DNA from: a virus
Lineage: Duplodnaviria; Caudoviricetes
Length of the DNA: 64,000 bases
IMG/VR virus record: IMGVR_UViG_3300025678_000005
Reading direction: 5' to 3' (one strand)
Part shown: positions 31,475 through 64,000 of the stretch, one piece after another
How the letters are laid out: the number at the start of each line of letters is the position of its first letter
How positions within the stretch are numbered: the stretch's first letter is position 1
Position numbers and translations under genes: made by a program
Notes under the pieces: model-generated
Databases searched by the model: none
The model's input: only the letters and a program-made list of their open reading frames with translations
What the model was told of the DNA's origin: nothing

Positions 31475-31484
31475 TGCCACATAA

Positions 31485-32365: not shown

Positions 32366-32464
32366 AATTCGGCTCAAGGAAACCCCGAAGTCTTTAGCTT
32401 CTGGGAGGAATTGAGCCACTATTCCTTCTTTTGTTGAATTTAACATAATTATTTCTTTCAAATA

Positions 32465-32496
32465 TTTGAATATCTCAAAACTATTTTGTATCTTTG
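32465..32496 (+). promoter_or_regulatory. Bacteroidota promoter for tnpB
   Basis: -33 TTTG (32465) and -7 TATCTTTG (32489) 20 nt apart; ATG follows 4 nt later, so the mRNA is near-leaderless. Confidence 0.7.
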
Positions 32497-32500
32497 TGGT

Positions 32501-33634: not shown

Positions 33635-33668
33635 TTTACATTTTAAAACTGATAATGATAATATGTAA

Positions 33669-34833: not shown

Positions 34834-35148
34834 AATAAGATAGGCATAAGAATTTTAAATAATTCAATAAATAATAATTAATTTATGACAAAAGTCTTTG
34901 AATATAAAGGATTAAGATTTATAGAAGTTGCTCCAAATATCTTTCATAGTGTCGATTTTGGAGATAAACTTATTTATGAATATAAAGAGAATAAATATTA
35001 TTTAATTAAAGATGAAAGAATAAGCGAAGTAATATCTTTGGAAGAATGTAATGGGAATCCTAATAGTATCTTTAATAATGATTATTGGTGGAAATAACTT
35101 ACATAATAGAGCAAATAATAATATAACAATTATATTTTTTAAATAATA

Positions 35149-36234: not shown

Positions 36235-36828
36235 AAATTATAATAAAAATTTAAATTATAAAATAACATGACTAAAGAAGAATTTGTAAAATTTATAAAT
36301 AATTTTAAAAAATTTCATGAATATGTAAATAATTATGAAATGTTTGGAATTGATTTAAATCATGAAAAAAATCCTATCTATTCTACAGTTTGTGAAATGT
36401 TTGAATTAATAATTAATTCTGAATATACTTCTATTGGCGTTGACATACTATATTGGTATGTATATGGAACAAAATTTGGTGAAAAGATTTATCCTACATA
36501 TATTAAAGAAAGTCACAATAAGATAACTGTAGAAGATATTTATGATGAACTAGAACAATATAGGAAATAAAATGTCAAAAGCGAAATTTAAATTTCGACA
36601 CAATCGCTGGGAAATGATTTGTTCAAAATGCAGTAAATTTATTAAAGATGAGAATTTCTTTACAGATGATGAATGGTTGGCTGTTCACGGTGAAATAAAA
36701 TTACCAGCACAATACTGTGATGAATGTTTGGAAAAAATGGAGAAAGATGATTAAATTATAATTTTTCATCTAATTAATAATTAAATAGACAAATTGAAAT
36801 AGTTTTTATATAAGTTTTTACATCACCA

Positions 36829-36949: not shown

Positions 36950-37549
36950 ATGTTAGAAGCAGAATATAAATACAATTTAGAAAAATTGTATGATCCAGAA
37001 TATATTAGTGATTATTACGCTAATAATAATGTACAAAGTAAAAGTTCTTTATTAAGAGAATATTTAGCAAATTCTAAAAAATCTGATGTTCCAATATCAG
37101 AACGAATTAAAAGTTTTATAACCTTTAAGGAAAAATCTAAACCAATAACAATCAGTAATAAAGTAAAAGAAGCTATGGATTTTTTTATACAGAAAGGACT
37201 TACTAAGGAACAGGCAGCTGGAATATTGGGTAATCTTCAGGTAGAATCGAATTTAAATACTACAGCATGGGGTGATAATAATACATCTTATGGTATAGCG
37301 CAATGAAATAAAGACAGGTTGGATGGTTTACATGCATTTTCAAAAATTAGAAATAAACCTACACACGATTTTCAAACACAACTTGAATATATTTGGCACG
37401 AATTAAATACTACAGAAAGAGCAGCACTTGATGAATTACTTAAGACTAATAATCCAGTAGATGCTGCTCGTGTATTTGCTAAAAAATTTGAAAGAATGAA
37501 AGAGTATAATCCAAAACGTGAAATATACGCTAAAATGTTTAACGCCTAG
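36950..37549 (+). CDS. phage tail lysozyme-like peptidoglycan hydrolase (199 aa, TGA=Trp at 37304)
   Basis: AAGILGNL..ES, YGIAQ[TGA]NKDR = GIAQW, QLE.IW.EL, AA..F...FER; the two track ORFs are in one frame. Confidence 0.85.
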
Positions 37550-40500
37550 CCATAGGATTTGGTACTAATTCCATAAAGTTCAAATTTGATCTAATAAAAC
37601 TTTCAACTGATCCGTTTCCAGAAAAAACATCCTTAACAGAATCTATAGTATCTGATAAAGTACTTATAAATACTGGAGTTGTTTGTATATCTCCTAATAG
37701 AGAAAATGGATTAAATTCCTTTGTCGATCTCATTAAGATTTTACAAGCCATTCTTTCGTATTGATCCATCTGACTATAGTTTGTTTTTCCAGTAATTAAA
37801 TCTTTATTTTTAAATATTAAAATACCAAGTAATATATTAATTAACATTATAATTAAATCATGTAACATTAATTTCGCATTATTAAGTCTATGTGGTTCTA
37901 TTTCTTTTAATGATTTTCCAGTAGCAAGCTCCCTTATTGTTATACCAAAAGAATACATTAATCCTTCAAAAGGATCTCCAACTCATTCTCAATCTGGTGA
38001 ATAAGCATCTCCAGGTTTTAATTCTGTTTCTGGTATTTCAAGTCTATATTCTTGTCCATTTTCATCTGTTTCATACTTTACATAATATAGTACTTTTTTA
38101 CCATTTACCATTTTAAACTTCTGTTGCATATGGCCTCTTTTTGTTTTTGTAGGTTTACCAAAATAATATCTTATCTTGGCTGGCCAGAAAGTCATAAATT
38201 GACCAAAAAATATACCAAGTGGTAAATGCTTTATAAGAGGACTTCTATCATAGTCATAATATCCATACGCCAATTCTGTAAAAGTTTTTATACTTTCTCT
38301 TTCAAGATTCATATATGGTTCTGAAATTAGATCTTCTTCTTTATATGTTTTATCGTTTTTAAAAATAGCTTGTTTATTAAAATAATCAATATAAGTTTTG
38401 TATAATGCTCTTTGTGTATTATATTTTTTATCAGTTGGATGATCTTTCATTCCATATTTTTTTCTCATTTGAAAATAATATGAAAATCTTTCATCCTTTG
38501 TTACATCATAAACTAAATTACCATCTTTATCTAAAGAATATGCTTGGTAAACACCATCTTTTATTAATTTTGAAAGAAATAATGCTAATCTATTGATATA
38601 GTCTGGAGCTGTATTACTCCAATACATAAAATCACTAATGAAATTTAATCCTCTTCTATCTATCTTTGTTTTATCAACTATCTGATTCATATCTCTATTT
38701 GCAATTCTAAAATAATTATTTAACTCATTAACTAAAGCATAATCCTTTTTTGATAATAATAATTTATAGGCCTGTGTTAAATATCTTCCAGAAAAACTAT
38801 CATCACCATATACTTTTGATCAGGCATAAGAAGTATTCTTTATAGTACCAACTACTAATTCTTTAATTGCCATGGCTGGTCTTATAGCTAAAACCATAAA
38901 ACTTACTCCTTTTTGCAATAGCCTTATATAGCTAAATAAATCTTCATATTCTTTTCCTTTTATTGGAGACACATTATATATTGATACTTTAATCTGTTCC
39001 ATTGTAGTGTTTAATAATTTTTCAACTTCTTCAATATGACCAGTTTGATACCCATAAAATCGCAAATTTTGCATTGCTGCATTAATATATGGAAGTACTT
39101 CATTAAAATATTTTTCTTTAATAGATTCAAATATATATTTTAATAAAATAGTATCTAAGTTAATTTCTCAATGTCCAACACTATATCTTGTTAATAGATA
39201 ATCCCTAAATTCTTTATCTTCCTGACTTTTGAATCTATTGTAAATTTTCTTTAGGCCATTTATAGCATTCATTGAACCAATATATTGTAATTCTTTTTCT
39301 GCTTCTTCAGGAGTTTCTTGTTTTATATCCAATATATTTAATGCATTTTCTTTAATATTTCCAACCATTTTTCTAAATCCATCTGTAGTCAAAGTTTTTA
39401 ATTCACTTAAATTCATTCTTGGAATAAGAGGAATTTTTAATAAATTTTCAATTTCTCCAGAAGCAAGCATTTGTTTTAGTTCTTCTGATTTTTCAAACTT
39501 TTCAAATGTATCTAATTCTTGATTTGAGCCATCTCTATATAAATAAAACAGATGTATATATTGTTTTAAATATTTTCTTTGTTCTGGAGTTAAAGCTGTT
39601 TCTTTTGATCATGGATTTTTTAACTTAAATTCTGAATCCAATTTATTACCGTCATGTTCATAAAATGGACTGTAGAATCTATCTGCATCACCAATAAACG
39701 TTTTTTCAAGCCAGGGTCTTCCCATTTCTTTATACATTGCATTTGTTAAATTAATAACTTTATTTTTTTCTTTTAAATAAATACTACTAATTTTATCCTG
39801 AGTAAGATTTCTAACATCGTATATTTGGTTCAAATATTCTGATTGAACAGCATCAGTTGTTGCAAGTTTCATTCCCTGGAACATTCCAACTGTAGGAATT
39901 TTTATATTTGTATCTTTTACTTCTCCAAATAATCAGCTTTTTAACATGTGTGTAAAATCACCTTTTGTCATACCATACTCATTTACGCCAGTTTCAAACT
40001 CTCCATTGATTCCTATAAAATGAGATATTCCTCCACTTACTAATGCATATAGATAAACAATAGGATCGCTAAAATCAGTAATTTTAGTTGGATCTATTTT
40101 ATTCAAATGGCCATATGTTTCTAAAAGTTTATCACTTAGTTGAGTTAATAATTTTATTTTTTCATTATTTGTTGATGGATTGTCAAATTGCTCCATACTA
40201 AAATAAGCATTTAATGCATCATTATTTATAGTTCTTAATGCATCTAATATTTCTTGATATAATATTTCCATATAATCTGCTACTTTAATTTTTTTATTAG
40301 CAAAATTATTTTCTATATTTATATCATCCTTTATTTCTTTTAGAAGCAAATCGAAATTATAAAAGGCATTTTCCAAATTATTAGATCAGTCTGGTGTTCC
40401 AGAGGAAATATCCAATACTTTTATATTTCCAAGTTTATATCCATATAACACATCTGGCATAGCATTTAATACAGTCAAAGTTTTTAAAATTTCTATATGT

Positions 40501-42398
40501 GAACTTGTAGCGTTTCATATTTTTGGATCTCTATTTAAATCTGAATCTCTATAAAATTTACCAAGTACTTTAGTTCCAAGACCAAGATTGTTAATTTGTC
40601 TTAAATTATTAATTGTTAATGTTACAACTTCTACCTGTAATGTCTTATTATTGCGAAAAACAAGTGTGCCATTTGCTAATAAAGCAGGTCTATTTGTAAT
40701 TAATTCTCAATCTCCACTTAAGTATTTTTGAAAAGTAGTATTTAGACCATCATAAATAAGTCCTTTTATATTTAATTTTCCAGTTTTTTTTCCTTTATTT
40801 ATTTCTTTAATTATATCCTGTACAGCTGTATCTTTTTTAGCATTTAATAATTCTACGTATTCGGCAACTCTTTTTCTAAATCTTTCTACGCCTTCTTCGG
40901 TGTTGGGCTCTTCAATATATTCACCAGTTAATCTATTCAAAAGTTTAATTGTTTGTCTTCCTTCGGCCCTATGTTTAGCTTTTGTTATTAAAAATTCTAT
41001 ATCTTCTATTTTACGTTTTGTCCTGAAATTATAAGTAGGAAACATTGCAGATAATGTTTTTTGTATATTACTTATTATTACAGTACTTTCTTCTGGGTTA
41101 TCTTTAACTTTTACAGGAATTAATTTTCTAAGCGTTTGTGTGACAATTCCATTTTCATCAAGGCCAGATGGTTTATATGCATAAGAAGAACTTCTTTCAT
41201 TTACCTCTCCAATATAAAATTTATCTGCCATTATCAATCCATCTCTATTTACTGGAAAAATTGCTGGTAATATGTATAATGATATAAGTTGTGGATTAAT
41301 TTCTGGTGGCAGCAAATCCTCTAGTAATCTCCTTGATATACCAAGTTTATAGTCAGTTCTTAGAATTTTTGCTGAGTCTCAATCTGTAATATTATTTCTA
41401 GAAACTCTTACATCATAAATGCTGGGAATTCCATCACTGTTTATAGATAAGTAAGAGATTGGAGATGATATTCCTGTTGCATTTTCTATAGGTAATTGTC
41501 TATTTAACCAAACATCTGCTTCAAATTTTTCAGTAGAATTTAAAACAGTTTGTTTATATCATTTTTGTATCTGTTCTTTTATATTTTGTGATATATTTAC
41601 TTTTTCTTTTTCTGTAAAACTAAAGTCATGTTTTATTAATTTATTATAATTCTCTACAGTTTTTATAATTTTTTCTATAGAATTATCAATAGAAAATTTA
41701 GGATTCTTTTTTATATAATTTTGTAAAATATCATTAACTATTATTTGTAAAGACACCATTATATTTGAAGTCTTTAATTCCAGGTCTACTTCTTCTGTTG
41801 CCCTTCTAAGCGCTTCTTCTGGATCAGACTCATTTAAATCCTTATATTTTGTATTAAGTAAATCATTTATAGCTTCTTTCTTATAGTTTTCATCATTAAA
41901 AACAGGAGCAAGTAATTTTGGATTTTCACCATCTATTATATGTTCCATTTTTAAAAATTGACTATCAATAATAAAGTTCTTACTATATGGTACATTATTT
42001 TTCTTAATTTCTTCTCATACTCTATCCTGTATAGAATTTTCTTTAATATCAAATTTCAAGACAGTATGTTTTTTATTTTCCAATCATTCTTTAAACTGTT
42101 TAATATCTTCTTCTGATCCCAATATATATTTATTAAATGGTGTATATGAAATACCTTCATTAATATCATGTTCTTTTGGATCTAAATTAGGAAATTTGCT
42201 GTCTATAAAATCAATATATTGTTCAAGTGTTCCAATACCTTTTATTTTTTCATCGTATATAGGTAATATATAATCATTTATAACATTTCCAGGTATTGAA
42301 TGTATATAATGAGCCTTTATAAAATCAGAAAGTTCTTTATCAGATTCATAAGTAAATTCATTATTTCCATCTTTTAAAAAATATTTGCATTTATCCAT
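37539..42398 (-). CDS. giant virion (ejection/cargo) protein A, about 1619 aa, TGA=Trp
   Basis: Nine track ORFs share one frame; breaks checked are TGA; gaps checked translate cleanly (e.g. SPD-W-E-W-VGDPFEG). Confidence 0.8.
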
Positions 42399-42399
42399 A

Positions 42400-45300: not shown

Positions 45301-45492
45301 ATTTAAATTTAAGTCTTGTATATTATCAAAATCTAATAACTTATTTTTTAATTCATTATAAGCAGCTAAATTAGAACTGTCTATATTTTTTTTCAATTCA
45401 AAAATTAAATCTTCTAAAGAGTTAATTTCATTCTGTGTAGAAAACAATTCTACTTGCTTTCCTTCTAGATTAACCGTATACTTGCAATCCAT
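42400..45492 (-). CDS. giant virion protein B with zincin HExxH domain, about 1030 aa, TGA=Trp
   Basis: Four track ORFs in one frame; PLHELLH...EALEE; ends EQKCNY*. Confidence 0.8.
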
Positions 45493-48400
45493 TATTTACA
45501 TTCTTTACTAATTACTAATTTTTTATTTTTAATTTGCTGAACAATTTCATCAGCTAAATTTTGTGATTGTTTATTAACTGTTATTTCATGTGAAACTTCA
45601 TAAGGAAAAGTATAATATCTATTCATTTGTAATGTTTCATTTTCAGTTACATTTAATTTTTTTGGTTTATTTTTATCATAAATATCAACATCACCAAAAA
45701 CATATAATAGAAATCCTTTTAAATTATTATTATTTTCAGATAAATCTTTTACTAAAATATCAACATCTTCGTGTGTTATAGAAGATTCAAAATTAAGAAA
45801 TTTTCTTGAAATAGAATTTGGATCATCAGCATCTTTATAAAATAATTCTGTAGCTCTATTTCCACCAAATCTTCCTTCATTTATAATTAAATTATATGCA
45901 GTTAATAAATCTATTAACTTAATTCCAGCATTTAATTTAGAATCACCATCTTGTACAGTATTTATATTTAAAATATAATCTGTATTTATATATTCTCCAG
46001 AAGCTGGATCTCATTCTTTAGAAAATCCCCTACCAATCATCTCACTTATACCTGCCTCGAGATCTTCCAATTCATCATAATTAGATTCATCTAAATAATA
46101 AGATATTTTTTTATTTAAGTTATAATTTAAATATGATGTCTTTACAAATCTCTTTAAAAATCCATTATTAGCGTGTTTTTTCTTTTCAAAAGGTATTATA
46201 TATTCTTCCATTATATATTTAAATTTTGCTAATTCATATGGACTATTTAAAGAAAAATACCTTATTGGAGAATTTTCTAAATCTTTTTTAGTAAAAGTAT
46301 CTACAGAAATTTCATCTTGACTGTCTTTTAATATTCTAATATTATCTATACCCAAATAATTCATTAATGCTATCAAATCAAATTTATAATCCAGAGTATT
46401 AAAAAATTTATAAATAACTCAATTATCATAATAATCGTTTATTTTATTCAGTATTCCTGAACTGTATGTAACTGGATTATTCTGCACTCCATTAAGTATT
46501 ATATGTTTGGTTATTTTATAATATAATTCGTTTTGCGGATAAATATCCAATATTTTTTCAATTATCTTTTTACTGTTATTTATTGAATTAAAATAATGTT
46601 TATTTGTTTTTGAGGTAATAACAGTATCAACAGTATGAAAAGATTTAAACATGCTATTAAAATGCTTTAAAGAAGATAGTACATCTAATATATTAAATGT
46701 AGATTTTATAAGATTGTAATAATCAATAGCTATTTTTCTATAATTATCATCATTAAAAAATAAATCCAAATCTAATTCTTTTTCTACTATATTAATATTT
46801 TTAGCTTTGTCATATATTTCTTCAATAAGCACTTCATTTAATCAAGGTTTATCTTTCTTAATAGTTTCTAAATCACTTAAATCATTAAAATATTTTCTTT
46901 TCAACATTTTTCTTTGATTGACCAACGAAAATCTTAAATTATTCAATAATTCATAAAGACTTTCTTCATTAGCTTTAGATCCTTGATTAACACTTAAAAA
47001 AGAGCCAAGAGTAATTAATTCTTGAGAGTCCATAAATATATTGAAGAAATTGACAAAGAAATTACTTCTATATTCATTTATAGGAAGAGCTTTTATATTC
47101 TTGTCAATAGAAGCCCTGATCATATTGATTCTGGAAACGGGTCTACCATTTGTAATAAAAATGTTGTTTTCTGTTTTTCTTTTTAATTCCATAGCCTCTG
47201 GAGATGTCATAAACTTTGTAACTTCATCTGGCGAAACTCCCAACATGAGTAAATAAATATGCATTCCAGCAAATTCAATTCCAGCATTTATTTTTGCTAA
47301 TAAAAGCTCTTTTGCATTATCAGTAGCAAGTGTTAAAATGGCCGATATATAAAAAGCTATATCATTATCTAATGGAAATTTTTCCATAGATGATATTATA
47401 TAATCAATATATTCTGAATTACTCATATATTCAGAAAGTATTGTATCTTTAGAAATGCTTTCTAAAGAAGTCCTAATATTTTGTACTAAAATTTCATCTA
47501 GTTTGTCTTGAATGTTTTTATAATTATTTAATCCAGCAATTTTATTAAAGCAATATTCTTTTCCATTAATTACATAATGTTTGAAGAAATATTTACTACT
47601 ATTTACATCTATATTATCAACATTCATATAATAGTTTCCAAAATATTTTACAAGTGCAAAATAATTTTTTAATCCTACAGCTGCAATACCAATAACAGCT
47701 TTACCTACTGTGTTTTGTTCTTGTTGCAAGCCCATAGTATATCCATTATAAACATCAAGATTATATGGTGAGTCAGAATAATTCTTTTTTATTTCTCCAT
47801 AAACTCCAGATGTTACTGGTATATTAGATGCAACTTGTGTTGTAGGACTTTCAAGAACACCTATCATTTTGTTTACAATATAGTTTTTAAATCCATTCTC
47901 GTTATAATAAGATTCGTGCCTATTAATAGCTTTTAATAAATAATCATCTTCTGAATATATATATTTATATTCATTTTTATTTAATTCATTTGTAATTGCT
48001 ATAAATTTATCCAGAAAACTGCTATCGTTTATTCCATTACTTTCTAAAAAAGAATTTATATTAAATACATCATTAGAAAAATTTATACCATTGTCATCAG
48101 TAATTAAAACATCTTTGTATTTTGTTAGATTTTTTTCATTTAATAAAATATATTTTCTGTTTTTTGGAAGTGGAATATTAATTGATTCATCAAATTTAGT
48201 TGTATCAAAATATGGAGACCATGCTTCAAATTGACCATTTTTAAATGAGTATCCCATTGTGTATACTTTATCAATGTCAAGATCTGATCCCTGTAGAAAT
48301 AGTTGTCAGATAGATACATATATATCATTTGCTGATCCAGGAATAAATCCTACCGTTTCCATAGACATAACTGATTGTAGTGCTTGAGCTGGAATTCTAG

Positions 48401-51400
48401 CTACAACAGATTTTAAAGATTGCTTAAAACTTTTATATTTTATATTTGCCAGCCTTTTTGAATATTTAAATGTTTCTGTTTTTTGTTTTGTTTTAAGAAA
48501 TTCTTCATATAAATCAATTACATTCTTTTTAGTTATTTGTCCAGTATTATACTTATCTATAATATCCTTTTTAAATTCTTTATAATTTTTTATTTTTTTT
48601 CTAAAAAAGCTTTCTAATTCTTGATTATTTACAGAATTTGCTATTGTTGTTAATAATGTCAAATAATCATCATCCACCAAATCTAATAATTTATCTACGG
48701 TATTATATCCTTTATCCTTTGTATAAATATAATTCAAATTATTATGGCTTTCTAAAAAGCTATCAATACCTTCTTTAATATATAAAATTTCATTGCCTTT
48801 AGTATCTAAGAACACTTTATAGGAAGCTGGTAATTTATACATTTTATGTCCAAAAGAATCTATTCTATAATTACCATCATCACTTATATAAATTTGAATT
48901 TCTTCTGCTATTGGAGAATACTTTGCAATTTCTGCATCCAAAGAAGTATTATTATTTTCAGCATCTCTTTTTGCAAGTTCCATTACCGTTTTTAAATATA
49001 ATTTATTTTTATATTCAATATAATTAAAATCTTCTAAAGAGACATAATAGTCTTCTCCGTTTACACCAACTAAAACTAAATCTGCTGGAACTGGTAATAA
49101 TGGATGAAGATATTTCTTTGGCAATAAAAAGTCTGAGATGTTTATTTTATTTAGATTGGTATCTTTCTTAATTCCAAATGTGTCATATTCACCATAAGAT
49201 CTAATATTTTCTGGTGCATAATATTTATAATCTGTAATACTATTAGTATTAATATAATTATTTTCAAATTTTCCTGTAAAATCATCAAAGCCATCTACGG
49301 TTTTAAAAATAGTATTAAAATAATTATCATTCGTTTCTTGATAAGATATATAGTTCTTATTATATGATAATAACTCAAAAGTTCTTTGTATTCATTTATC
49401 AACATATGGCAAAATATTTACACTCCCTGTAATATTTTGAATATATTTAACAAAATCATTATACATTTTGCTTGTTTTAAAAGTATTATCATTTAAAAGT
49501 CTCCATTTGAATTCTATTGCATCACAATCTCAAATACTCCTTTGAATTCCATTTTCTACGAATGTAACATCAGATGGTTTTAAATCTCTTGGCTGATTAT
49601 ATATCTTATTTATAATAATATCAGAATTATTTAAAGATTTTATTAAACCTTTAATTTGAAAATAATCATTTATTTCATTTAATCTAATAGGAGTATTGGC
49701 TGGTATTAAATTACCGTTTAATGTTATATCTATATTTAATGAAATTACATCCAGGGGTCTTATACTTGAAATATTTATATTTGTAGGCTGTAAACTTGGA
49801 AGAGTAGATAATACATAATCTATCTTTGCATTATTTATATCATGTAAATTATCTAATGTATTAACTTGTGGTTTTACAGATAATTCATCATATATACGAA
49901 TTAAATCAGTATTTAAATATTTATTTCCATCTCTATCTTCATATAACTGTACAAATCCTTGTGAAGGTCTTAACACATAACCAGCTCCTGGAAATTTTCT
50001 TCTAACAAATTCTGCATTAACCTCAGAAATTAAAAAGCTTATAAATTGTTTATATATTGTTTTATTATCAAACGGTATAATATGCTCAAAATCATTTTCT
50101 AATGCATTAACAATTGTCCTAGCATTATTAATTTGGGATGAATTATTCAATCTTTTTATAAATAATTTTGTAATAATTTCAAAATCCTTATCACTATTTA
50201 ATCTAATATTAAATTTTTCAAGTCCACGTTCGGTAACTGTAGAAATAGCATCATATACAGCATCTGACAGTTCGGGAACTAGATTCATTTCAGATAATGC
50301 TGATATAACTTGTGTAATTTCATTTACTTCAGAATCTTCTACTGTATGATAAGGATCTAGCTGTGTTCCAAAAAACGAAGTATCGAATATAAAATAATTT
50401 AAGGGTTTATCAGAAGAAAACACATCTTTTACTGTATTTATATTTGTGGCACCATATTTTATTGCGCTTTTTGGAACCAGCATTGTAATTAAACTTTCTT
50501 TAAGAGTGTTATTTTTATTATAAATAGCATGTTTACTTACAATTGAGGCCACTAAATTAATAGAAGATTCATCATATTTAATTTGATTGTTTTCCATAGT
50601 TGCAGAATATTCTCCACCAAATGCTTTCCATAAATCAAATAGATTATTGATTTCTACTTGTTTTTCATCTCCACCTTCAAAATATATAGTATAAATATTA
50701 TCCTTTAAAAGTTTTATATTTAAAAATTTTTGCATCTTACCATTGTGTCATAAATATAGATTTGGTACAATAGCTTGTAAATCTATTGGACTATAAGAAT
50801 CAGAATCGCCAAGATCTTTAAAACTAAATAGATCAAAATAACCATCTTTTCATAGATACTCACTATTTAATTTTTTCATAATATTATATAGTTCTACATC
50901 TTTTCTATTACTATTTCTTATATCATTATTACTTATTGCAAATGTTGCAAATTTTAGTAATCCAGAAAAAGATTCACTTATTATTTGGGCAATTGGTTTT
51001 TGTGAACTCTGTAAATTGTATCCTGGTAGTGAAACTTTAAGTAATTCATTAAATATTGGATTTACCAAAGCTCCCCCATTATAAACTTCTATTTTAGTTT
51101 GATCACCAGTATAGTTAAATACTGTAGTTTCTGGATCAGACATAACAGCTATTTTATGTTTTTGTAAAATTCCTTCTGGACTTTTCCCATATATACTCAT
51201 TGATGCACCAAAAATGTTCATTCTTTTGGTCATTGTTGTTGTACGTTTATTGTTTTCTCTGGTTAATACAGATTCTATACTATCTCATTTATTATTTACT
51301 GGGGTAAACAGTTTTTCATATGGATGTATGTATGAATCTTTTGTTGAAATATTTAAGTACTGAGATGTTACAAGATTTTTTGTTCACAAATATGTTTTAA

Positions 51401-54257
51401 CAATATCTGTTATATTGTTTTCATCTTTTAAAACTATTTCATCATCATTAGTTATTTTTATATTAGGAAAAGCATTTGTTATTGATGCTATTTTTTCTTT
51501 TTTGTCTTTCTTTTGAAAAACAATATAATTTAAAGAAATTTTTTCTGGAATATATTTAAATAATTCTTTTTCTTGATATTCAACTCATTTATCAAATAAC
51601 TTCTTATCATTAAATATTTGTACATACGATTTCAAAAGTTGATTAAATTTAATAACATCTTTTCCGTTTTCATTTTTATAAAAAGAATAATGAGTTTCTT
51701 CAGAAATTTCTACATGTTCAGAAGAATGTATTTTATCTGATATTGCTTCTAAAATTTCTTCTTTAGAATTAAGCTTATTAAATTGTTCCAGATATTCTTC
51801 AATTTTATTTATCTTAGAAATGGATGTTTTTGGTTTAGTTTTAAAGAAATCATTATCTAATATATAAAAATCATTATATATATTAGATATTAATGTATTA
51901 TAATAATCTGATTGATAAACCCTCATCACTTCTTTCAATTCTTCTAAAGAAATGCTATTTAAAGAACGTAATCCAAATGGAGTATTTATATTTTTTGCTG
52001 TATTGAAAACAGTACCATATATAGTAGACTTATCTGAATAAGTTACTGGAATATTGATAAATTCGTTGTCCTTTAATCTGGCTTCCAAAAAATATTTTGT
52101 AAAAGACAACATGAATATCTCATTTGCATTTAAATCACGTAAATCTTTTGAACCATATTTACCAATAACCTCTAATAGTACTTCATTTCTTTTATAAAAT
52201 CCAGGATTTTTTGAGAATATATTATCAGTTTTATCAATAATATTATTAAATAAAGAAGACATATTTGCAACAACCATAGTTGGAACAGACTCTCCAGTAG
52301 ATTTTTTTACCTGTGTGACTGTATCAAATTTTATATCTCTCTTAGATATTTTAAACAAGTCTCTTAGATGTAAAATATCATCTACATCATTAGCAAAATA
52401 TGTTGCCACTCTGGTTGGAATATTATCTGTAGATTGATATTTTATATTGCTTGTTAAATATTTAATAGCATTTTTAAAATTATTACTATTAAAATCTACA
52501 TTTTTTGATTCAAGTATTTTTCTATATTCTTCTATCGTTGTTTGTGATAAAGAAAGACCTCCTTTATTCTGATCTGTTAACAATTTAATAAAATCATCAA
52601 AATTATTAACAGTATAATTTGAATTTATAATGTTATTTGTTTGTGCATTATCAAGATTTACAAATAAATTCTCTACTTCCTTAGATATGGTGAAATCCAA
52701 ATCTAAAACGTCCACAGTTTTGCTATCATCATAAACAGATGCTTGATGATAAACATTCTTTACAGTATTTCTTAAATGATTAATTAAAGCCAATTCGGGA
52801 TTTAAAATAAAATCTCCAGTTTCTTTGTTTGCATCTCTTCAAGCAAGAATAGAATTTCTTAATCCTTTAGGAGCATATAAAAATTGATATATACTTTCCA
52901 ATACACTTTTTCTTGCCAATATGTTATTGCTTTTTTCTACTCCTTGGTCTATAACCGTTCTTAATATTTTTTTAAAAGAAAGTACATCTTTATCATATAA
53001 ATCATATAATTCTGAAATAGTATGTAATTCATTATTACCATTTATTTCAATATTAAATTTAATATCATTATTTAATTCATTTAAAATAGTTCCAGCGGCA
53101 TCTAAATTATTTTTACCAATAGACAATCCATACTCATTTTTTACTCAAATTGTACCTTTTGAAGTTTTTCTTTGTTCATAAAATGGTATAGTATAAGCAA
53201 TTAATTTTATTAAAGAAGTTCTGTTTTCTTCAACACTATTTGCATTTTCATTATCCAATAAACTTTTCTTACCTCATCTTATATTAAGTGAATATTTTGG
53301 TAAACCATTTGTAGGAAGATTAAATGTTCCAGAACTATTTATATTTACTTTTACTTTATCCGAATGATTATTAAGTAAAAAACTGTCAAAATTGGTTAAA
53401 AGTAATGATTTTATATATGCTTGTGCTATTGTATATCTATTTCCACTAATTATTCTAAAATCTCCTTCTACAGATTGCATATTAATATCCATCTGTTCTT
53501 TTATAAATTCTATAACTTGTGCATAAATAGAATTTTTTCCATTACCAAACAGAGCATCATTTAAAGATAAATCATACCCTTCAACATTTGATATTCTACT
53601 TAAAATATATAAATTTGAATCTTTAATCTTTATAGGATTTGGATGATTATTCAAATAATATCTATAAATATAATCCCATAACTCATTTTTATATAGTGCA
53701 ATATTTTTATTTAATGCAGCATCAGTAGTAACAAATCCTTCATATGGATAATCCTTATTGTTTGTATCTAATGAATTAATAAATATTACTTTAAATAAAC
53801 CTATATTAATTAAACTATTTAAATAATTCATATAAGAATCATTATTATATACTAATTTCATTATTGATGAAAAATCATAAATTCTATTTTCATCAATAAC
53901 TGGATTTGTATCATAAACAAAACTTTTAACATAATTTGATTTAACTTTATTTACTATATCAAATACCAAATCATCAAGATTTTGATCAAAATTCTCAAAC
54001 TCTGATGTATATAATTTAAGAGTATTAGTTAGATTTTCAGATAAACTAAAAAAATCATATGAATTTATAGCTTTATTTTCATTAGATATTTCAATTATTA
54101 AATTGCTAATACCATCTGATAATTGTGTTCATTTATTATTTTCATTATCCAAATTTATTTTCTCTAATAATAAATCTTGATTAATAGATTCATTAAGAAA
54201 TGTTTTTATTTTTTTAGAATTTAAAACACTCTTAAAATTCTGTATACATTTTGCCAT
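45492..54257 (-). CDS. virion-packaged DNA-dependent RNA polymerase (crAss-type), about 2921 aa, TGA=Trp
   Basis: Nine track ORFs in one frame; ARIPAQ..QS and YVSI[W]QLFLQGSDLDIDK, with the DxDxD motif at 48270-48284 lying between track ORFs. Confidence 0.88.
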
Positions 54258-54261
54258 ATGC

Positions 54262-57200
54262 TTATTTTATACTACAATTTATATTTGTATTGTCTTCATC
54301 TATTGCGCCAAAATCATCCAAATAAGATGATAGTGGATAAAATTTTCCATTTTTTTCTATATAACTATTAGGATTATATATTACATTTTGAATATAATCA
54401 GATAAAATTACATCGTTTTCATTACCAGTAAATAAATCTTTATCTAATTCAATATTGTTATAATTTCTAATTAAGAAATTTCTAACTGCCTGATTCATAG
54501 TTGACAATAATTGTTTTTCTTTACCAACAGGAAATTTGGAAACATCTAATTTAATAGTAACTTTTAATTTTAAATTTCCATCTTCAAGATTTAGTACAGC
54601 TTCATTTGGTATTATATTATTTGTTGTAATATTATTTTTTATATTAGTTTCTTTTTTTTCACTTAATAAATCACTCATACGTATCAATAATCTATTTGGT
54701 TCTATTGCAACATTGATATTATAATATTTATATTCATCCAATGGTAATGTTCCATAAGACTCTCCTTCTCCTCCAACTCTTATTGATTCTATAGTTGGAT
54801 TGTAATATATTGGTTTTTTATATTGCTCTAGAAATTTATCAAATTCATATATTGGATTTGTAATTACATCAGATAAATAAAATAATATATTACCAATTCT
54901 AACTGTTTCATATTTTTCTATTACAGTTTGTCCTTTGATTATATTTTTTCTTGTTTCTTCTGAAGAGAATCACTTCTTAAAATCATCTTCATCATTAGGA
55001 TCATAATTATAAGAAACTAAACTTTCAACTATTTTTGTTAATGTATCTAAACTAAAGAAATTTCTTGTTTTTCCAAAATAATTGTTTTCTAGATTTATAA
55101 GAACATCTTTCATTAGATTTTCTTTACCAGAAAGTTTTAAATATTTAAAATAATTGAATAATAATTCTCATGATCTATATTTACTAATTAAGTGGTGTAC
55201 TTTTATATCTTTTTTCTCTTCATCCAATTTCTTTGAATTAATTATAGATGTAAATTCTTTTCAAAACTCCATAGGGCTTCTTGAATTAGAATTTAACATA
55301 ATAAGCCTATTACATGCAGTATTTGTATCATCGTATGAAACAATAATATATGGCCTGAACCTGTATTGTTCTAATAATTTTTTATCAGTAATTTTATATC
55401 CTGTATAGGTTTCAAGCTCTTTTTGTATTGCATTTAAATCACCCCAAAAAACTCTTACTTTATTATCAAGTATTGTTGCTCCAGGAAAAACTTTTGAAAT
55501 ATCATTCAGATTAACTGGTTTTATTTTATTTGTCTGGTTTTCACTTTTTGGCAATATTGGATTTTTATAAATTGTAACGGCCTGCTTGTTTATAGAAACT
55601 TCTCCTTCTTCATCGACTCTTGAATATATTTCGCTTAATTTTTGAATGTTAATGGCCCTAGAAACATTGGTATTATTTAAATCTGGCAAAACAGCCAAAG
55701 TCATAAATATTTTTTTATTATTAACATTAATATATGTTCCTATAGCATATATATCAGTTTTTATAGAGTTATTATTTACAAGTTTTCCATAAGAATATAT
55801 ATTATCAACAGAAGATGCTATTTTTTTTATAACTCAATCTGACTCTACTTGCACTGTATCATTAAATAATTTTTGTTTGCCATATAATTTATTAAATAAA
55901 ATATGATTTTTAAATCTAATATATTCATGTATAATATCGCTCAATTTTAAATTTTCAGAACTTATTTCCTCTAAAGCAAATAAATCTGTATCTGTAAATT
56001 TAACATTATTTTCCTGTTCTAATGTAGTTTTTAAATTACTTCATGAAATAGTATTTTTTTCACCAGACTCATTAATTTTAAAATTTAAAAATTTACTTAA
56101 TGGACTTGGACTTGATATATTATGCACATTTATTCCAAGATTATTAAAGAAGCTGTATCCTAAAATATTGTCTGGATCAGGAATTTTTTCCTGTTCTTCA
56201 TTTTCTTCTGTGTCTATTGTATCAATAACTGGAATTTCTTCTATAAAATCAACTGGCTCTACGTTAATATTACTTACAGGTTCTTCAACGGTTTCTACTT
56301 TTTCCTCTTTTAAATCCATTAAATTTATTTTATCAATTCTATTTTGTAAAGACTTGTTTATTGCATCGGCATTAATTGTAACTGGAACAGATTTGGCACG
56401 CAAAATATTTTTTATATTAATTGATGTATTAATTTTTGCTAAGGTTCCTTCTTTTGCCCTGGTCAATAAAGTGTACAGTTCTCTAGCTTCAATATAAATA
56501 TGAGAATTCTTAATATTTAAATCTATTATTACTTGATCAAATTCTCTTCCTAAAACATCTCTACCATATACTTTTATTTCTTTATCATTAAATACATTCT
56601 TTAATTTTTCTCTTAAAGATTCAGATAATGTCCCATCTTGTGTTATTACAGCTATTTCTTTATTTGGATCAAGTTTTTTTAAATCTTCTTCTGTAATTGT
56701 ATTTACAATTAAAGTTCCACTTAAATATTGATTTGTATCATTATATAATAATTCTACATCTTTTTGAATTGGTTTTTGTTCAAATGATGCCGCACGAACA
56801 TTTCTTACAAAATTTTCAAGTGTAACAACATTTTCATTTTGTAATGTATTTCTTGCTCTTACAGGATTTCGCATTTTAATATTAGATGCAGAAAATATAT
56901 TATCTGTACTAAATAAATTAGTTCCAATTTGTATTCCACTTTGTAATGGATCCCCCATTAAAACAATGTACACATTATTATTTGCACCAAGTTTATTTAA
57001 AATTTGTCATTCTATTGTATTAATTTTACTTAATTCATCTCCTATAATAATTTCTTTTGCAGTATCAGAAGGTTTTAATAGAAAATCATCAAAGAAAGCT
57101 TGCTTCAAATATACCGCACCAACACCTTCGCCAATTGCAAAGTATTTGGTATTTATTTCTTTATTTGCTTCAGCAAGTTTTTTCTCATCAGTTAAATCAT

Positions 57201-60200
57201 ATTTTTCAATTATAGAATATAAATTTTGTAATTCATTTAATCCATTAGGATTCAAGTACTTATTAATAATATTAGAAACTGTCATATTATTAATGGTTAT
57301 ATCTAGAGTTCCCTTTATATCCTTTGATAATGTAACCAAGGTGTCTTCTGTAGGAGCTATAGCAGTTATATTAATAGTATTATCCTTTCCAAATTTTTCT
57401 AATATTGTACGTAATGTATAATTTGCAATTACAGAGCTTTTTCCTGTCCCACTTGTTCCATGTATAGAAACTATATTTTCTATATTAAATGCTTCTAAAC
57501 TGTTTATTCTATCAATTAAATCATTTTGAATATAGGACTCTGATAATCCTTTTTCTGGATTTTCTTGTAAAAAAGTTGTAATATGTTTATAAATCTGTTT
57601 ATTTTTAAAATATCCAACAACAAAGCGTAAAGACATTTGTTGTGAGAATAGCGGAGCCTTTCTATTTCCAGGTAAAGATACTTCTTTTTCTAATAATGTT
57701 TTATAATCATTATAAAATTCTTTACTATCATAACTTAAAATAGTATGTACTCAATTATATCAGTCTAATAGTTCAAATTTATCAAAATCAGCTGTTAAAT
57801 TAGACTCTCTAGACAATATAATATCTTTAGCGCTAAACTCTTTTAAAAAGTTTCCAAATATTTCATTTAATTTAGTATTTAAATCTCCTGGTAATTCGTG
57901 AAATCTTTTATAAAAAGTATGCTCTATTTCAATTGCTTTTAATTCATCATCATCTATTTCATCAAAACGATCTAAATCATCTATAGTAAACAATGTTTTA
58001 TTATTAAATTTCAGATTTAATAAACTAAGTTTATTATCTGGATCTAAATATTGTTTATTTATATTTTTGAAAAAAGATTCTCTAATTCTATTATCGTTTT
58101 CTATTATAGAAACAGCATTATTTCTTGCTAAATTTTCAAAATAGGCTAATTTTGAATCTATAAAATTAATGTCCTTTAAAATTGTATATGCTGTTTGAGA
58201 ATTGATAGTATCATAAGTTTCCTTTAAACCCTGTTTCTTTAAAGCTCTATTTAACATTTCATTGTATCCATATAAATTGGACGGGCCAATTTCTGTAGAT
58301 GTCATAGCAGCTGTTATAGCTCTTACAACATTTAAAACATATCTGGCCTTCATAATTTGTTCTAATTGTACATCACTTCTAATGAAATCAGATTTAGTAT
58401 CAACATTCTTGTCAAAGAAATTAATATTATCTTTTAATATATCAAAAAATGTTACAGGATCTGCTCATCCATAAATAGTTACCTGAAAGTTTTTTAGTGT
58501 TTCAAGTAATGTATTTATTTTCCTATTTTTCTTTGCATATTCAAGTACTGGAGATAATCTATCATATATATCCTTATAATGTTTATAAGCTACTTCATCT
58601 TCACTTAGTTCCGCATCATCCAAAAGTTCTGAAATTGTTTTATATGCCTTTTCGGACTCTTCTATAAAGGCTTCTTCTGCTGGTAAATTTTTAGAAACCA
58701 AATCTTTTCCATATTGTATTAACAAATTTACTTTTGGTGTAATTTCATCTTCTGTTTGAATGTCTATTTGACTTAATAAACTTGCAACATATAATGCAGA
58801 TTGTTTTTCTACAGCATCATCTGGTAAATTATTAACATTATTAATTAGAGTATTATTATATTTATTAATAAGTTCTCTAATAACTTCCTTATTCATTGTT
58901 CATTCAGGAAGACCAATTTTATTTAATATGTCTTCAATTATTATCTTTTCATCATCAGAAAATTGTTCTATTGTTGGTTTAACATTTTGAAAATTATTTA
59001 TATATTCAATAATTTTATTGTCTATTTTAGAACTAAAAAGATCATTTACAGATTTATTTAATGTTTCTTGTAATCTGTTCTGTGTGTTAATCAGAGTTTC
59101 TTTAATATCATCATTATTTATAGAGCCATCTGGATTTGTTATTACATATAATCCAGCATTTGATAAGTCTTGTAATGATATTTCTTCTCCATTATTTAAT
59201 TTATTAAGAAGAGTATTTACTTCTTCAAGTTTTTGTTTAGATGCAACTAGATTAGAAAATTCATTTTTTAATGTATTTTTTTCTTCATTATTTAATTGTA
59301 ATGTTAATTGTTTTTCTCCATCATTATATTTTCCTGTTTCTACTAATTCAATAAAAGAATCTATATCTAAATTTTTTATTGGTACTTGTTTGTTTATATT
59401 ATTATATAATTGATACATTGTCCACATTTTATCTGCTAATTTTGTAGCTTCTTCTTGGTTTTGTGTATTGTAAGTATCAGATATATATTTATATAGGTCT
59501 TGAACAATTACAGCTTTATTAGAATCTGTAGTATTCTTTTTAATAATATTATTATCAAGTAAGAATTTTCCAACATTAATAAATGTTTGAGAATCAAGAG
59601 AATATTTTGGATACCCGTTTTTTGTTAGAGTTGTATTAATATCATTCAATCTATCTAATAACTTAATATAATCAATTTGTCCATCTGTAGAATTTATAAA
59701 TGCATCCATAAAAGCACTTCTAACAGATGCAAAACCATCAGAATCATATTCTTTTATTGCTTTAGAAAATTTTTCATTCATATTGAGAAAAATATTAAAC
59801 ATTTTTCTCATCTTTTCTTTAAAATTCACTTCTGTATTTGACTTTAATTCATCAAATTCTATAAGATATTTATTTTTTTCTTCATCAGATAGATGATAAT
59901 AATCCTTATCATACACATTTTTTACATACTCATCTACAGACATATTTATAAATGGTTGATGTAATATTGGATTTAAAGTAAACAATGCTCAACTATGATA
60001 ATATTCAGAATTTTTACCAGATACCAAATCATTAAATTCCTGTCTTTTTTTATTTAATTCTTCTTCTACTAATTTTTTTGTGTTTAAATCGTTAGAATCC
60101 TTTAACGTTTCTTGTTGGTTCTTTAGATTTACAATTTGTAAACCTATTTCTTTTGCATCAGATAATAGAAAATTATCAACTCCAGACTTCTTAATATCAT

Positions 60201-62379
60201 TAATATAAATCTGATCCATTATGCTTTTTTTAATTAAATCTTCATCTGTATTTTTTAGATTTTCAGAATTAACAATACTATCAATTCATTTTACTCTTTG
60301 TTTTAATAAATCAGCATAAGTATCAGCATTAATTTCTACATTCGATTCACCAACATGTATTTCATTATCTCAAAGTTTTCCCTTCATATTATCTATTTCT
60401 GATAATATATCTGCTGTACGTCCAGTAGAAATCAAATCATATAAGTCAGCTTCCGTAGATAAAGATATTTTTTCTCTATTAACCATTGGTTCTATTATAG
60501 AACGTTGTAGCTCAAACAATGGCCCACCTATGGCACCACCTACAAAATTAGCCAAATAATTTTCAAAACCCGCCTTACTGAAAACAACATCAAATCCTCC
60601 AAAACTACCTTTTTTAGGAGTCAAACCTAGAGCACTCATAACATCTACAATACCTTTTGATGCATCTATTGCAGCTTGTTCTGTTACTTCTTCTACACCT
60701 TCTATAATACTTCTTTTTATTATATTTTCTGCAAATTCACTTTCTAGTATTGGCTCTGTTAATAATGTTTTTATTTTAGATTTAAATCCAGAAACAGCAG
60801 TTGCAAGTTTTGCTTTTCCAGCAACCTGATCTACATCAAACATATCAAAAGCTTCTTTAACTTTTCCATAAGAATCCTTTACAGCCTTTCTTACCACTGC
60901 TTTACTTTCATTCTCTGTATATCCAGTAGTTTTGTCAAGAAACCATGTTCCCATTTGATTATTAGCCATTAAAGCATATTGACCGCTAGCAGCAAGCAAT
61001 GATGTAAATCCAGCAGTTCTTCTATCATATCCACCAGCCAGAGCATCACTATATACATTAGAAGACTGTGTTAGAGCCATATATCCTAAAGATAAATTTT
61101 TTGCAAGTTTTGATCTTTGTACAGAACTTGCAGTATTTTCATATCCTTTCATAAATGCCCTTCTTGCTACATCTTCTACTTGTTCAACTGGGATTTTCCC
61201 AGCAAGTGCCCCTTCAACAGCATTTTTTTGAGCAAGCGTAGCCAGATTCTCCATATATTTTTTATCATTTACTTTATAAAAAAGTTTTGATAAAGATGCT
61301 GCTGCTCTTTGTTCATAAATTTGAGAAAATATAGAAGATACCATTGAACCAAGTTGCTCATAATTTCACATCCCCTGTTGTCCAAAATCAGACAGACTTG
61401 GAGAGCTTATTTTATTAACAGCACCTTCAATTTTATTCATTGCTTTTCACATAGGCGTTTCTATACCATCGGCTGGTTCACCAAGTAATAAACCTTCTAA
61501 AGATTTATAAAATGTGGGCAATGTAGCTGATAATCCCATAGCCATCTTTATACCACCATAAATAACATTAACATGTGGTATAAAAAATGGTAATGTCTCT
61601 ACTGCAAATTTCATTGTAGTACCAATAATAGATTTATCTTTTCCATCAGAATCAAAAAAATCTATCTTATTAATTGCAGTTCCTTCTTTTGTAAGAAGAT
61701 CTAAGGGATTAACAAGTTGCTTTCCATACATCTCCCTTTTTCCAAGTGTTTCAATATAGAAAGAGCCAGTTTCATCAGTTTTTCACTCACCTTTTCTATG
61801 TGCAACTGTTTTACCTATTACTGGATCAAAGCTTTCACCATCAGAATCTCATGTAGCATATACTAATGTTTTTCCAACTAAACTTTTAAAAAATCCTAAA
61901 TCGTTTGCTGATACATCCAATCATTTATTATTATCGTAATCTCATATTTTACCATTTTGTGCCAGCTCTCTATTTGATAGCTCATTTATGTCAACAGTAT
62001 TTACTCCAGTTAGGCTATAATAGTTTTGATATGGATTATAATCAGTCCTTATTGTTGGTCTTACATCTACTTTTTTACTCTTCATTGGAGCTCCATAATC
62101 ATTAGGATCATAAGTTAATAACTCTGCAAGAACTTTGTCTTCCGACATTTCTCTATACAAAGATACTGCAGAATCATAATATTTGTTAAAAGAATCTTCA
62201 TTAAAGATTCCTTTTTCATCGGAAAATATTTTTTTAACTTTATCCAATCTTTTGTACTCATCTTTACTTAAAAGCTGTGTATTTTCTATAGTCATATTTG
62301 ATTTAATAACATCAAACATGTCTGCATTTGGCTTCTGTAATATAGCTACAAATACATCATTTGGTTTTTTAATATCCAT
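54262..62379 (-). CDS. giant virion protein D with SF1 helicase domain, about 2705 aa, TGA=Trp
   Basis: Eleven track ORFs in one frame; GTSGTGKS, IGDE, MGDPLQ, GREFD.V and YT.LTRA; Gly/Ala-rich N-terminal region with EGVEEV.EQ. Confidence 0.82.
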
Positions 62380-62381
62380 AT

Positions 62382-64000
62382 TTATTCAATTATAAGACTA
62401 GATTTTGGTGATAATTCAGTTGCATTGTCATATGCCTGTTTTTCTCTAGCATAAGTTACTGTTGGCTGTGCATCTAATAAATTACCAGCTGCAGATTTAA
62501 TATAATAATATGCATTATCTACATAAGGAATAGCTATTAAACCTTTATAGTAATTAGTAAACAAATCATTTATACCTACAGGAGCCTCTATTTTATATTC
62601 TCTTCAAATATTTTTAAGCATGGCTGAAGTGGTATTTTCTTCATCAGAAGTAAGTTGATGTAATTTAGGATTAGCTTTTGCTGCTGGAGATTTTTCTCCT
62701 GTATATCCAGTAAATACTAAAAATGGTTTATATCTATCATTTTGTTTATATTCTCTATTCTCATCTACTTTAACCATAGAAAGACCGTTTTGTTCAAATA
62801 TTTTATTAATTTGTTCTGGTTTTAAATTTGGATCATTTAAAACAGTTTGTTCTAATTGTTTTATTCTATAAAGTTTATTATAGTCTGGAGCACCATTTTC
62901 ATCTACAGGCATATATACTCTGGCCGCTAAAGAAGTGCCATCTCCAATAATATTATTTAAGTCTATTGGTGCTATTTTTTTACTTCCAAAATAAATATTT
63001 CCAGTATCCAAAACAGCTCCCAAATCAGAATTAACAAAATTCTTCAATGGAACCATTCCAAAAGAATTACCTTTTAAGTCTGTTAATTTTCCAACTCCTG
63101 TAGCTACCAAATCAAATGTTAATTTTGTACTTGGATCATTTCATTGAAAACTTTCTTTTCCAAGCTTACCAAGATGCAGTAACTCAAATGGTGTAATTGG
63201 TTTTTCTTTTGTTGTTCCAGATCCACTACCAGAAGTTCCTTTTTCTTGTAATCCTTCAATAGAAGAAGTTGTTTTTTCAGTAGTTTGATTAATAATCATA
63301 TCTAATAACAATTGTTTTGGTTCTTTGTATCCATTTAATTTTGCTGTAACATTTAATTGTTTTTGCGCTCTATCACCTAAAGTTCCTCAAATATAATTTA
63401 ATGCTTTATCTATCATACTTCTTTCAGTTTCAGTAACGTTTTGAACATTTACATATTGACCAGGAGTATTTTCAATATCACTTAAAAAACTTAAAGCTGC
63501 GGCCTCCTGTTGATTTGGCATTCTTGATAATTGATCTTTTAGTTGTTTAGTTAGAGATTCTTTTTCATATGTTCTTGTAGTAGAATTATAATTATTTCCA
63601 AAAGCATCAATTATATTTTGCACACCATTAATAATTTTTTGTATTCCAATAGAAGAACCAACAGTATTAATTATAGAACTGTTGCCAACCAATTCTGGAT
63701 TGTATTGTCTTTCTACCAGCAAATCATTATTTGTCAGTATTCTCCATTTTTTAGCATTTTTTAAATAATTATTAATGTCTGTTGTACGCAATTTATTATT
63801 TTCGTCTTTTACATAAACTTCTCCAAGTGGGCCAACAGCAACATCTCCCAATGAACCCTGTGCTTCAGCATGCCTTAATGCCGTCTGTCAATCATATTTT
63901 GCATTACGTAGTTTATTTACCTCACTTATAAGTTGTAATGATGCAGATACATTTGATGATTTGGTAAATGGATTCATAGATGATGTTTGTATTTTTTGTA
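62382..64000 (-). CDS. virion protein E, partial (starts beyond the window), TGA=Trp
   Basis: Three track ORFs in one frame separated by TGA; TAA at 62382-62384. Confidence 0.75.

Follow-up and report, generated by a model that had tools for sequence, protein, structure and literature searches.

Can one codon carry two meanings within a single phage genome? This question is raised by a stretch of 64,000 nt from the virus record IMGVR_UViG_3300025678_000005 (Duplodnaviria; Caudoviricetes), hereafter called the window, which corresponds to positions 74610-138532 of a single contig of 138,532 bp, that is, the right-hand 64 kb of the genome. A first-pass annotation made from the letters alone had proposed that late genes on the minus strand read TGA as tryptophan (Trp), whereas early genes on the plus strand use it as a stop. 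The genome has a GC content of 25% and is organised in two blocks. The minus-strand block of ~90 kb spans the contig junction and encodes the large terminase (TerL), the portal, the major capsid protein (MCP), tail and giant virion-packaged proteins. The plus-strand block of ~48 kb occupies the window from position 1 to ~37.5 kb and carries genes for replication and nucleotide metabolism.

Here, we present a computational analysis of both blocks. In our reading, which we hold with high confidence, the late block and a lysozyme gene on the opposite strand read TGA as Trp by means of a single phage tRNA with the anticodon UCA (tRNA(UCA)). The early block follows the standard code and would be translated first, and virion and lysis proteins would be obtained in full length only after this tRNA has been made.

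Reading frames of the minus strand and comparison of the two blocks

Under the standard code (translation table 11), the minus strand between 37539 and 63851 breaks up into about 30 open reading frames (ORFs) of at least 100 aa. When translation table 4 is applied, in which TGA encodes Trp, the region 37539-63977 resolves into exactly five frames of 1619, 1030, 2921, 2705 and 531 aa (frames A to E, Table 1), the number into which the first-pass annotation had joined its fragments. Each of them runs from an ATG to a TAA, and they abut tightly, every start being located within a few bases of the preceding stop. They contain 56 internal TGA codons but no internal TAA or TAG, which extends the earlier finding to the gaps that had been left unchecked. 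TGG is used as well, 13 times in the five frames. Since frames of 2,700-2,900 codons without TAA or TAG do not arise by chance at this GC content, the five-frame structure is non-random.

Both blocks were compared over their whole length on the basis of tiled ORFs, comprising 94 genes with 14,119 codons on the plus strand and 55 genes with 28,950 codons on the minus strand. In the plus block, all Trp codons are TGG (146) and in-frame TGA is absent, as had been stated for the early genes. The minus block has 252 in-frame TGA codons and 78 TGG codons, TGA thus being about three times as frequent as TGG, and the ratio differs between the blocks with p = 6e-51 (Fisher's test). The Trp frequency amounts to 1.03% in the plus block and to only 0.27% in the minus block if TGG alone is considered; it becomes equal only when TGA is counted as Trp (1.14%). 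The comparison of coding densities that had been suggested as a check points in the same direction: under table 11, the minus block consists of 156 fragments with a density of 72%, as compared to 55 genes and 97% under table 4, and the plus block has 87% and 88%, respectively. TerL, portal and MCP likewise are broken up by TGA only and reach full length under table 4.

Interrupted frames might also be caused by pseudogenisation or by errors in sequencing or assembly, and a small inverted-repeat assembly artefact does exist at the contig end. The likelihood of this explanation is practically nil. It is refuted by the codon statistics, since every one of the 252 interruptions is TGA and none is TAA or TAG, and the same pattern is found in 59 independent relatives as well as in a contig of another sample that is 99% identical.

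Meaning of TGA in the late genes

The protein homologs of TerL (genome 51314-53404) have Trp at all ten TGA columns of the gene. As such proteins are possibly table-4 calls themselves, this argument runs the risk of circularity and the DNA of the homologs was read instead. In the DNA of 59 IMG/VR relatives, the ten columns are occupied by TGA or TGG, or else by TTT, TTC, TAT or TAC, with four TTG and one CGA as exceptions, and all 59 relatives sampled are recoded.

For the window frames, the comparison was based on the complete genomes of two relatives, G1 (178 kb) and G2 (213 kb), which were reached via their TerL loci and show ~26-39% identity. Both share the block architecture and possess a tRNA(UCA). 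In 87 comparisons at TGA codons of the window frames, TGA was found 22 times, TGG 16 times and a codon for Tyr or Phe 15 times, the background frequency of TGG being 0.15%. At the four TGA columns of frame E, seven of the eight comparisons gave TGA, and TTT occurs in G1 at one. Codons for Gly (GGN), Cys (TGY) and Arg are essentially absent from TGA columns, with CGA seen once in ~580 comparisons. The interchange of TGA and TGG in the relatives' DNA, which had been named as a check, is therefore found, and the lack of Gly, Cys and Arg codons argues that TGA specifies Trp in the late genes, rather than Gly as in table 25 or selenocysteine (Sec).

Direct searches with the giant frames were less productive. 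At the DNA level, 37539-45492 had no counterpart among GenBank phages, and when IMG/VR was scanned with the 2921-aa and the 2705-aa protein individually, only the 99%-identical contig mentioned above was returned.

Suppressor tRNA and decoding machinery

No tRNA was found in the window, in agreement with the earlier inspection for a tRNA(UCA). The only tRNA of the genome, detected by ARAGORN, is located 14 kb upstream of the window (genome 60526-60599, minus strand) and has the anticodon UCA. It comprises 74 nt, shows a standard cloverleaf with a short variable loop and matches the Rfam model RF00005 end to end with 55 bits. Its acceptor carries A1-U72 and G73. In bacteria, these are identity elements of tRNA-Trp. 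The first base pair and the discriminator base of the UCA tRNA also match those of tRNA-Trp(CCA) within each relative: both tRNAs have A-U/G73 in G2 and G·U/G73 in G1, a combination that occurs in no other tRNA of G1. Among the tRNAs of the relatives, only the UCA tRNA of G2 is clearly similar to the one described here. Matches in other phages are tRNA-Met and tRNA-Lys with ~80% identity over 55 nt and are uninformative with regard to the isotype.

It is hardly credible that TGA encodes another residue, be it Gly (table 25, as in Absconditabacteria phages), selenocysteine, Cys or Arg. ARAGORN does label the tRNA as tRNA-SeC(tca), but this label merely reflects the anticodon; the short variable loop and the match to the general tRNA model are at variance with the architecture of a Sec-tRNA, which has a long variable arm and an extended acceptor, and 252 TGA codons, located at Trp columns, are far too many for selenocysteine, the UGA codons of which are rare and SECIS-dependent. 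Table-25 phages exist (10.1101/2021.08.26.457843), and tRNAscan-SE classified a similar tRNA of a zeta phage as 'Trp or Arg' (PMC12386605). The aligned codons found here are TGG, TGA, TTT, TTC and TAT, with GGN and TGY essentially absent. Table 25, known from phages of Absconditabacteria and Gracilibacteria, was rejected on account of the missing GGN codons.

Domains of the release factors RF1 and RF2 (PF00472, PF03462) and of class-I tryptophanyl- or tyrosyl-tRNA synthetases (TrpRS/TyrRS; PF00579) were not detected in six-frame searches of the genome, G1 and G2, with positive controls. The search of the remaining genome that had been called for thus yielded the suppressor tRNA but neither RF1 nor TrpRS. 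We infer from the lack of these genes that the host TrpRS must charge tRNA(UCA), in competition with the host RF2.

The relatives differ in their RNA equipment. G1 (L086-L094; tRNA at 24197-24271) has UCA and CUA (amber) suppressors among its ~26-27 tRNAs, yet TGA is the only codon that interrupts its late genes; the same puzzling pair of suppressors has been reported in the zeta phage Lera (PMC12386605). In the early block of G2 (L078:8160-8568, plus strand), a full-length gene for transfer-messenger RNA (tmRNA) was found (RF00023, 107 bits) with a tag ending in AA. Ribosome rescue might conceivably be linked to the suppression of stop codons. The 14.7 kb preceding the window contained no tmRNA at the Rfam threshold.

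A recoded lysozyme gene on the plus strand

The TGA that had been noted at a Trp site in the motif GIAQW is real, but it belongs to a plus-strand gene and not to the minus-strand frames to which it had been assigned. Together, the ORFs 36950-37306 and 37319-37549 make up a single PF18013 lysozyme, of which they cover profile positions 3-52 and 61-136, respectively. The TGA at 37306 was accordingly rejected as a stop. Its column is occupied by TGA in four recoded relatives. In seven phage contigs that are not recoded and have a higher GC content, TGG is found instead, as expected for a sense Trp codon. No further plus-strand gene follows the lysozyme gene, which is convergent with the late block and takes the same position in G1 and G2. 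Since this plus-strand gene is recoded, recoding follows function, i.e. virion and lysis genes, and not strand alone. The preferential recoding of lysis genes was described by Borges et al. 2021 (10.1101/2021.08.26.457843), with which the lysozyme found here agrees.

RNA polymerase and affiliation of the phage

In frame C, the motif DLDID is located at residue 1992 of 2921 and is preceded by a TGA at residue 1984, which confirms the distance of eight codons given previously. Neither phmmer nor a 40-sequence profile matched frame C to any PDB sequence. A phmmer search with residues 1500-2500 yielded 546 relatives, many of them with ~3000 aa, and an AlphaFold model of this segment was calculated with 40 relatives (pLDDT 66.6). 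Its single significant match in the PDB is 6VR4 chain A (Foldseek E = 5e-4), and VIA gave Z = 12.4 for the model versus 6VR4 over 352 aligned residues with an rmsd of 4.7 Å, the next chain reaching 5.2.

According to this model, frame C is a structural homolog of the virion-packaged RNA polymerase (RNAP) gp66 of the Cellulophaga phage phi14:2 (PDB 6VR4). The predicted fold of residues ~1690-2500 matches gp66 1288-2156, and the DxDxD motif is present as DLDID, a likeness of motif rather than a residue-by-residue alignment onto the gp66 catalytic loop. In contrast, sequence similarity to gp66 is undetectable by phmmer or profile, and frame C is ~750 aa longer. The modelled fold and the motif would give frame C both marks of crAss-type giant RNA polymerases, namely the two-barrel fold and DxDxD. 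The late region of the window is a block of giant virion-packaged proteins.

Matches to the PHROG families of crAss-type TerL, portal and MCP were obtained as well (phrog_6681, 3e-64; phrog_6547, 2e-45; phrog_11589, 5e-9). The identity of TerL to Crassvirales genomes is 27-30% in tblastn, and its best GenBank match (47%) is an unannotated gut contig. Together with the fold resembling 6VR4, these proteins indicate a distant crAss-like phage (Crassvirales sensu lato) with at most 30% TerL identity to classified members, an affiliation judged by protein matches and fold. The phage may belong inside the order, be zeta- or epsilon-like or represent a sister group. The comparison with Crassvirales drawn in the first-pass annotation was therefore apt.

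TGA as a stop codon in the early genes

Early stops are mostly TAA; of the 94 tiled ORFs on the plus strand, nine have TGA as their last codon. The earlier claim of three TGA stops at 3749, 25375 and 27615 stands for the second, which is a true stop according to its homologs, and is only plausible for the other two. At 25373-25375, TGA and TAA are swapped at the homologous terminus (Table 1), and the downstream in-frame gene is more than 1 kb away in both G1 and G2; this TGA therefore terminates translation. Two more early termini have TAA here and TGA in G1. The stop at 3749 is part of an ATGA stop/start overlap with the next TAA or TAG within 12 codons, and the stop at 27615 is followed by TAA or TAG within three codons. 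A reserve stop of this kind, TAA or TAG located 1-26 codons further on, follows most early TGA stops, and so the early block is largely readable in either code. It is better termed 'compatible with both codes' than 'a second code'. This property of the early block has been described for such phages in the Mgcod study (10.1101/2022.06.29.495998).

Without sense TGA and with stops that are mostly TAA and in some cases TGA, the early block should be translatable by an unmodified standard-code host. Such a host is also suggested by the crAss-like affiliation and would probably belong to the Bacteroidota. We consider it very improbable that the host itself uses table 4 (TGA as Trp, as in Mollicutes) and that the early genes are devoid of TGA by happenstance. 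A low GC content of 25% is typical of table-4 organisms and the early block remains almost unchanged under table 4, but the ratio of TGA to TGG is 0:146 in the early and 252:78 in the late block (p = 6e-51), TGA and TAA are swapped at homologous early termini, and the only tRNA of the phage is its own tRNA(UCA). In addition, TerL, portal, MCP and RNAP are crAss-like, and known crAss-like hosts are standard-code Bacteroidota (PMC7886860).

Proposed timing of the code switch

In the proposed mechanism, infection would start with translation of the standard-code early genes by the unmodified host. The suppressor tRNA would then be made, charged by the host TrpRS and brought into competition with the host RF2, and full-length virion proteins and lysozyme would be made only thereafter. 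A timed code switch of this kind has been published as a model (10.1101/2021.08.26.457843 Fig. 6; PMC7886860). Judged by gene function and gene order, a timed gating of virion synthesis fits the architecture of the present genome. The gene for tRNA(UCA) is located near the transcriptional head of the minus block, downstream of several TGA-free genes, and most ORFs there are TGA-free. Of six intergenic sense-strand boxes of the Bacteroidota type (TAnnTTTG) in the minus block, five cluster at this TGA-poor head (genome 57803-63464, minus strand), one of them 24 nt upstream of tRNA(UCA); a further box (window 36899) is found 51 nt upstream of the lysozyme gene. These boxes are too common in an AT-rich genome to convince and are regarded as a lead only.

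The distribution of TGA within the late genes is even. Positions along the genes are uniform (KS test, p = 0.31) without enrichment at the 5′-end, and the base following TGA shows a mild depletion of C and nothing more. The gene of MCP, the most abundant virion protein (genome 22166-23593; G1 126600-128030; G2 178083-179513), has a TGA:TGG ratio of 3:18 when the three genomes are pooled, as compared to 643:238 in their other late genes, and the bias is significant in each genome (p < 0.005). This avoidance of TGA fits the expectation if suppression costs more than cognate decoding.

Several observations weigh against a timed gate or against parts of the scheme on which it is built. Timing as well as the amino acid inserted are deduced from comparative genomics. 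In the late block, 15 of 55 ORFs do not contain TGA, and a translational gate would consequently not be universal. The uniform positions are the pattern of a plain Trp codon, and selection for gating is not apparent from them. Slow evolution instead of selection for efficiency could also account for the MCP bias, as MCP is 75-77% identical between genomes whose RNAPs are ~26-39% identical. Two small ORFs upstream of the tRNA hold one TGA each, if they are real genes. Finally, the isotype of the tRNA was not assignable by similarity searches, which gave no E. coli match. Among these points, the uniform spread of TGA and the 15 TGA-free late ORFs, like the free exchange with TGG, speak neither for nor against selection for gating.

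An explanation that accepts the split but dispenses with a selected timing gate is possible, although we do not regard it as likely. Once a suppressor is present, AT-biased mutation would convert TGG to TGA in those genes which are translated after the tRNA has accumulated, and the benefit would lie elsewhere, e.g. in damage to host or defence protein synthesis via read-through of host TGA stops. Such an anti-host role has been proposed (PMC7886860, PMC12386605). The even spread of TGA, as for any Trp codon, its free exchange with TGG at the same columns among relatives, the GC content of 25%, the late ORFs without TGA and the retention of TGG in the slowly evolving MCP would all be accounted for. 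On the other hand, TGA is strictly missing from the 14,119 early codons but present in the plus-strand lysozyme, which shows that selection tracks expression class, as a gate predicts as well. The two explanations are not mutually exclusive and are inseparable by sequence alone.

Within the scheme of suppressor-timed late expression, a more far-reaching idea concerns the lysozyme, and we consider it rather doubtful. This gene belongs to the early strand and is preceded by a promoter-like box of the host type; it may be held back purely at the level of translation by one conserved TGA at an invariant Trp, so that the amount of the suppressor tRNA would act as a lysis clock. The lineage of crAss-like phages would be a deep one, ancestrally and stably recoded for TGA, with a minimal toolkit of one tRNA and without release factor, synthetase or tRNA array.

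Other features of the window and the genome

The features of the window are compiled in Table 1. Pfam and PHROGs searches of the five giant frames revealed nothing beyond the SF1 helicase-like domain of frame D, which is located at residues ~1634-1978 (PF01443 and PF13245).

Table 1. Coordinates of early and late features in the 64,000-nt window.
Feature	Position	Strand	Basis or remark
Replication and nucleotide-metabolism block	1..36754	+	Pfam: PolA, helicases, DnaB-like, primase, nuclease, AAA ATPase, ligase, dNMP kinase, ThyX; no sense TGA
Early gene with verified TGA stop (25373-25375)	24947..25375	+	Homologous terminus TGA in G1, TAA in G2
Lysozyme gene, 199 aa, one sense TGA at 37304-37306 in GIAQW	36950..37549	+	PF18013 Phage_lysozyme2
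Late frame A, 1619 aa, 13 sense TGA, end TAA	37539..42398	-	Homologs in G1 and G2 with TGA or TGG at shared columns; no Pfam or PHROG match
Late frame B, 1030 aa, 5 sense TGA, end TAA	42400..45492	-	Table-4 ORF; G1/G2 codon comparison
Late frame C, 2921 aa, 15 sense TGA	45492..54257	-	Predicted homolog of crAss-type virion-packaged RNA polymerase
Late frame D, 2705 aa, 19 sense TGA	54262..62379	-	SF1 helicase-like domain; G1/G2 codon comparison
Late frame E, 531 aa, 4 sense TGA, end TAA	62382..63977	-	Crosses contig junction

The contig ends (genome 1-95 and 138439-138532; window ~63830-64000) overlap by ~80-90 nt with one mismatch, from which it follows that the genome is circular or terminally redundant. 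The last 15 nt of the contig are an inverted copy of the neighbouring sequence and have the appearance of an assembly artefact. In IMG/VR, the record is classed as linear and 75% complete, yet a second contig of 138,591 bp has the same TerL.

Within the replication block, a gene similar to TnpB/IS605 OrfB was detected at 32486-33634 on the plus strand (PF07282, 1.5e-25; PF01385). It coincides with a local rise in GC content (32% vs ~25%), and a 417-aa antisense ORF that overlaps it is probably spurious. As a clue to the host this gene is not informative, its nearest cellular relative found being a metagenome-assembled genome of Abditibacterium with 44% identity. No structured RNA of the window reached the gathering threshold in an Rfam scan. 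Upstream of it, in the early block, the hairpin motif 'DUF805b RNA' has two matches with 45-49 bits (genome 64453-64488, L005:4453-4488, and 66705-66739, L005:6705-6739).

Comparison with known recoded phages

Block-wise reassignment of TGA to Trp or of TAG to Gln in late genes, together with phage suppressor tRNAs, is known from hundreds of crAss-like and other gut phages (PMC7886860; 10.1101/2021.08.26.457843; 10.1101/2022.06.29.495998; PMC12386605). The reassignment of TAG to Gln was confirmed by metaproteomics in a study in which that of TGA to Trp is mentioned only as a prediction (PMC9523058). Split coding is hence already well described in crAss-like phages, and the present genome adds a member.

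With the recoded crAss-like phages described so far (Yutin 2021, PMC7886860; Borges 2021; Pfennig 2022), this genome shares the restriction of in-frame TGA to late, structural and lysis genes, a replication block readable in the standard code, a code switch that coincides with the strand switch, a phage tRNA(UCA), the alignment of TGA with Trp and the dominance of TAA as stop. Unlike these phages, the lineage is distant, with TerL identities of at most 30% to classified Crassvirales and no match at the DNA level, and the suppressor is the sole tRNA of the genome. Moreover, all 59 TerL relatives are recoded here, whereas in published gut clades the code changes over short distances.

The zeta phage Lera (PMC12386605) likewise uses TGA as Trp in TerL, RNAP, helicase, structural and lysis genes and has a tRNA-SUP-TCA, a likeness of features. 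Its ~26 tRNAs including UCA and CUA suppressors resemble the set of relative G1, while the present genome is smaller (138.5 kb) and lacks a tRNA array. Jade phages, which are recoded for TGA and possess a code-change operon (10.1101/2021.08.26.457843 Fig. S6), also have a tRNA(UCA) upstream of recoded late or lysis genes, with the machinery in standard code. In contrast to Jade phages, which encode RF1 and TrpRS, neither gene is present in the genome studied here, G1 or G2.

The concept of split coding, published since 2014-2022, is unchanged by these results. Particular to this genome are the sole suppressor tRNA, the absence of any release factor or aminoacyl-tRNA synthetase gene, the sharp contrast between early and late genes and the recoded lysozyme on the early strand. 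There are practical consequences for annotation: five giant virion proteins appear as ~60 pieces under table 11, and standard pipelines misread two thirds of the genome. In the JGI/IMG gene calls for this contig, TerL is represented by fragments of 61-154 aa, a table-11 artefact, and other sources hold the 696-aa form. One TerL homolog (P0114, 1045 aa) contains an intein/homing-endonuclease insert (PF05203, PF05204, PF14528). The clade to which the phage belongs appears to be large and uniformly recoded, and it could serve as a minimal model of suppressor-timed assembly and lysis.

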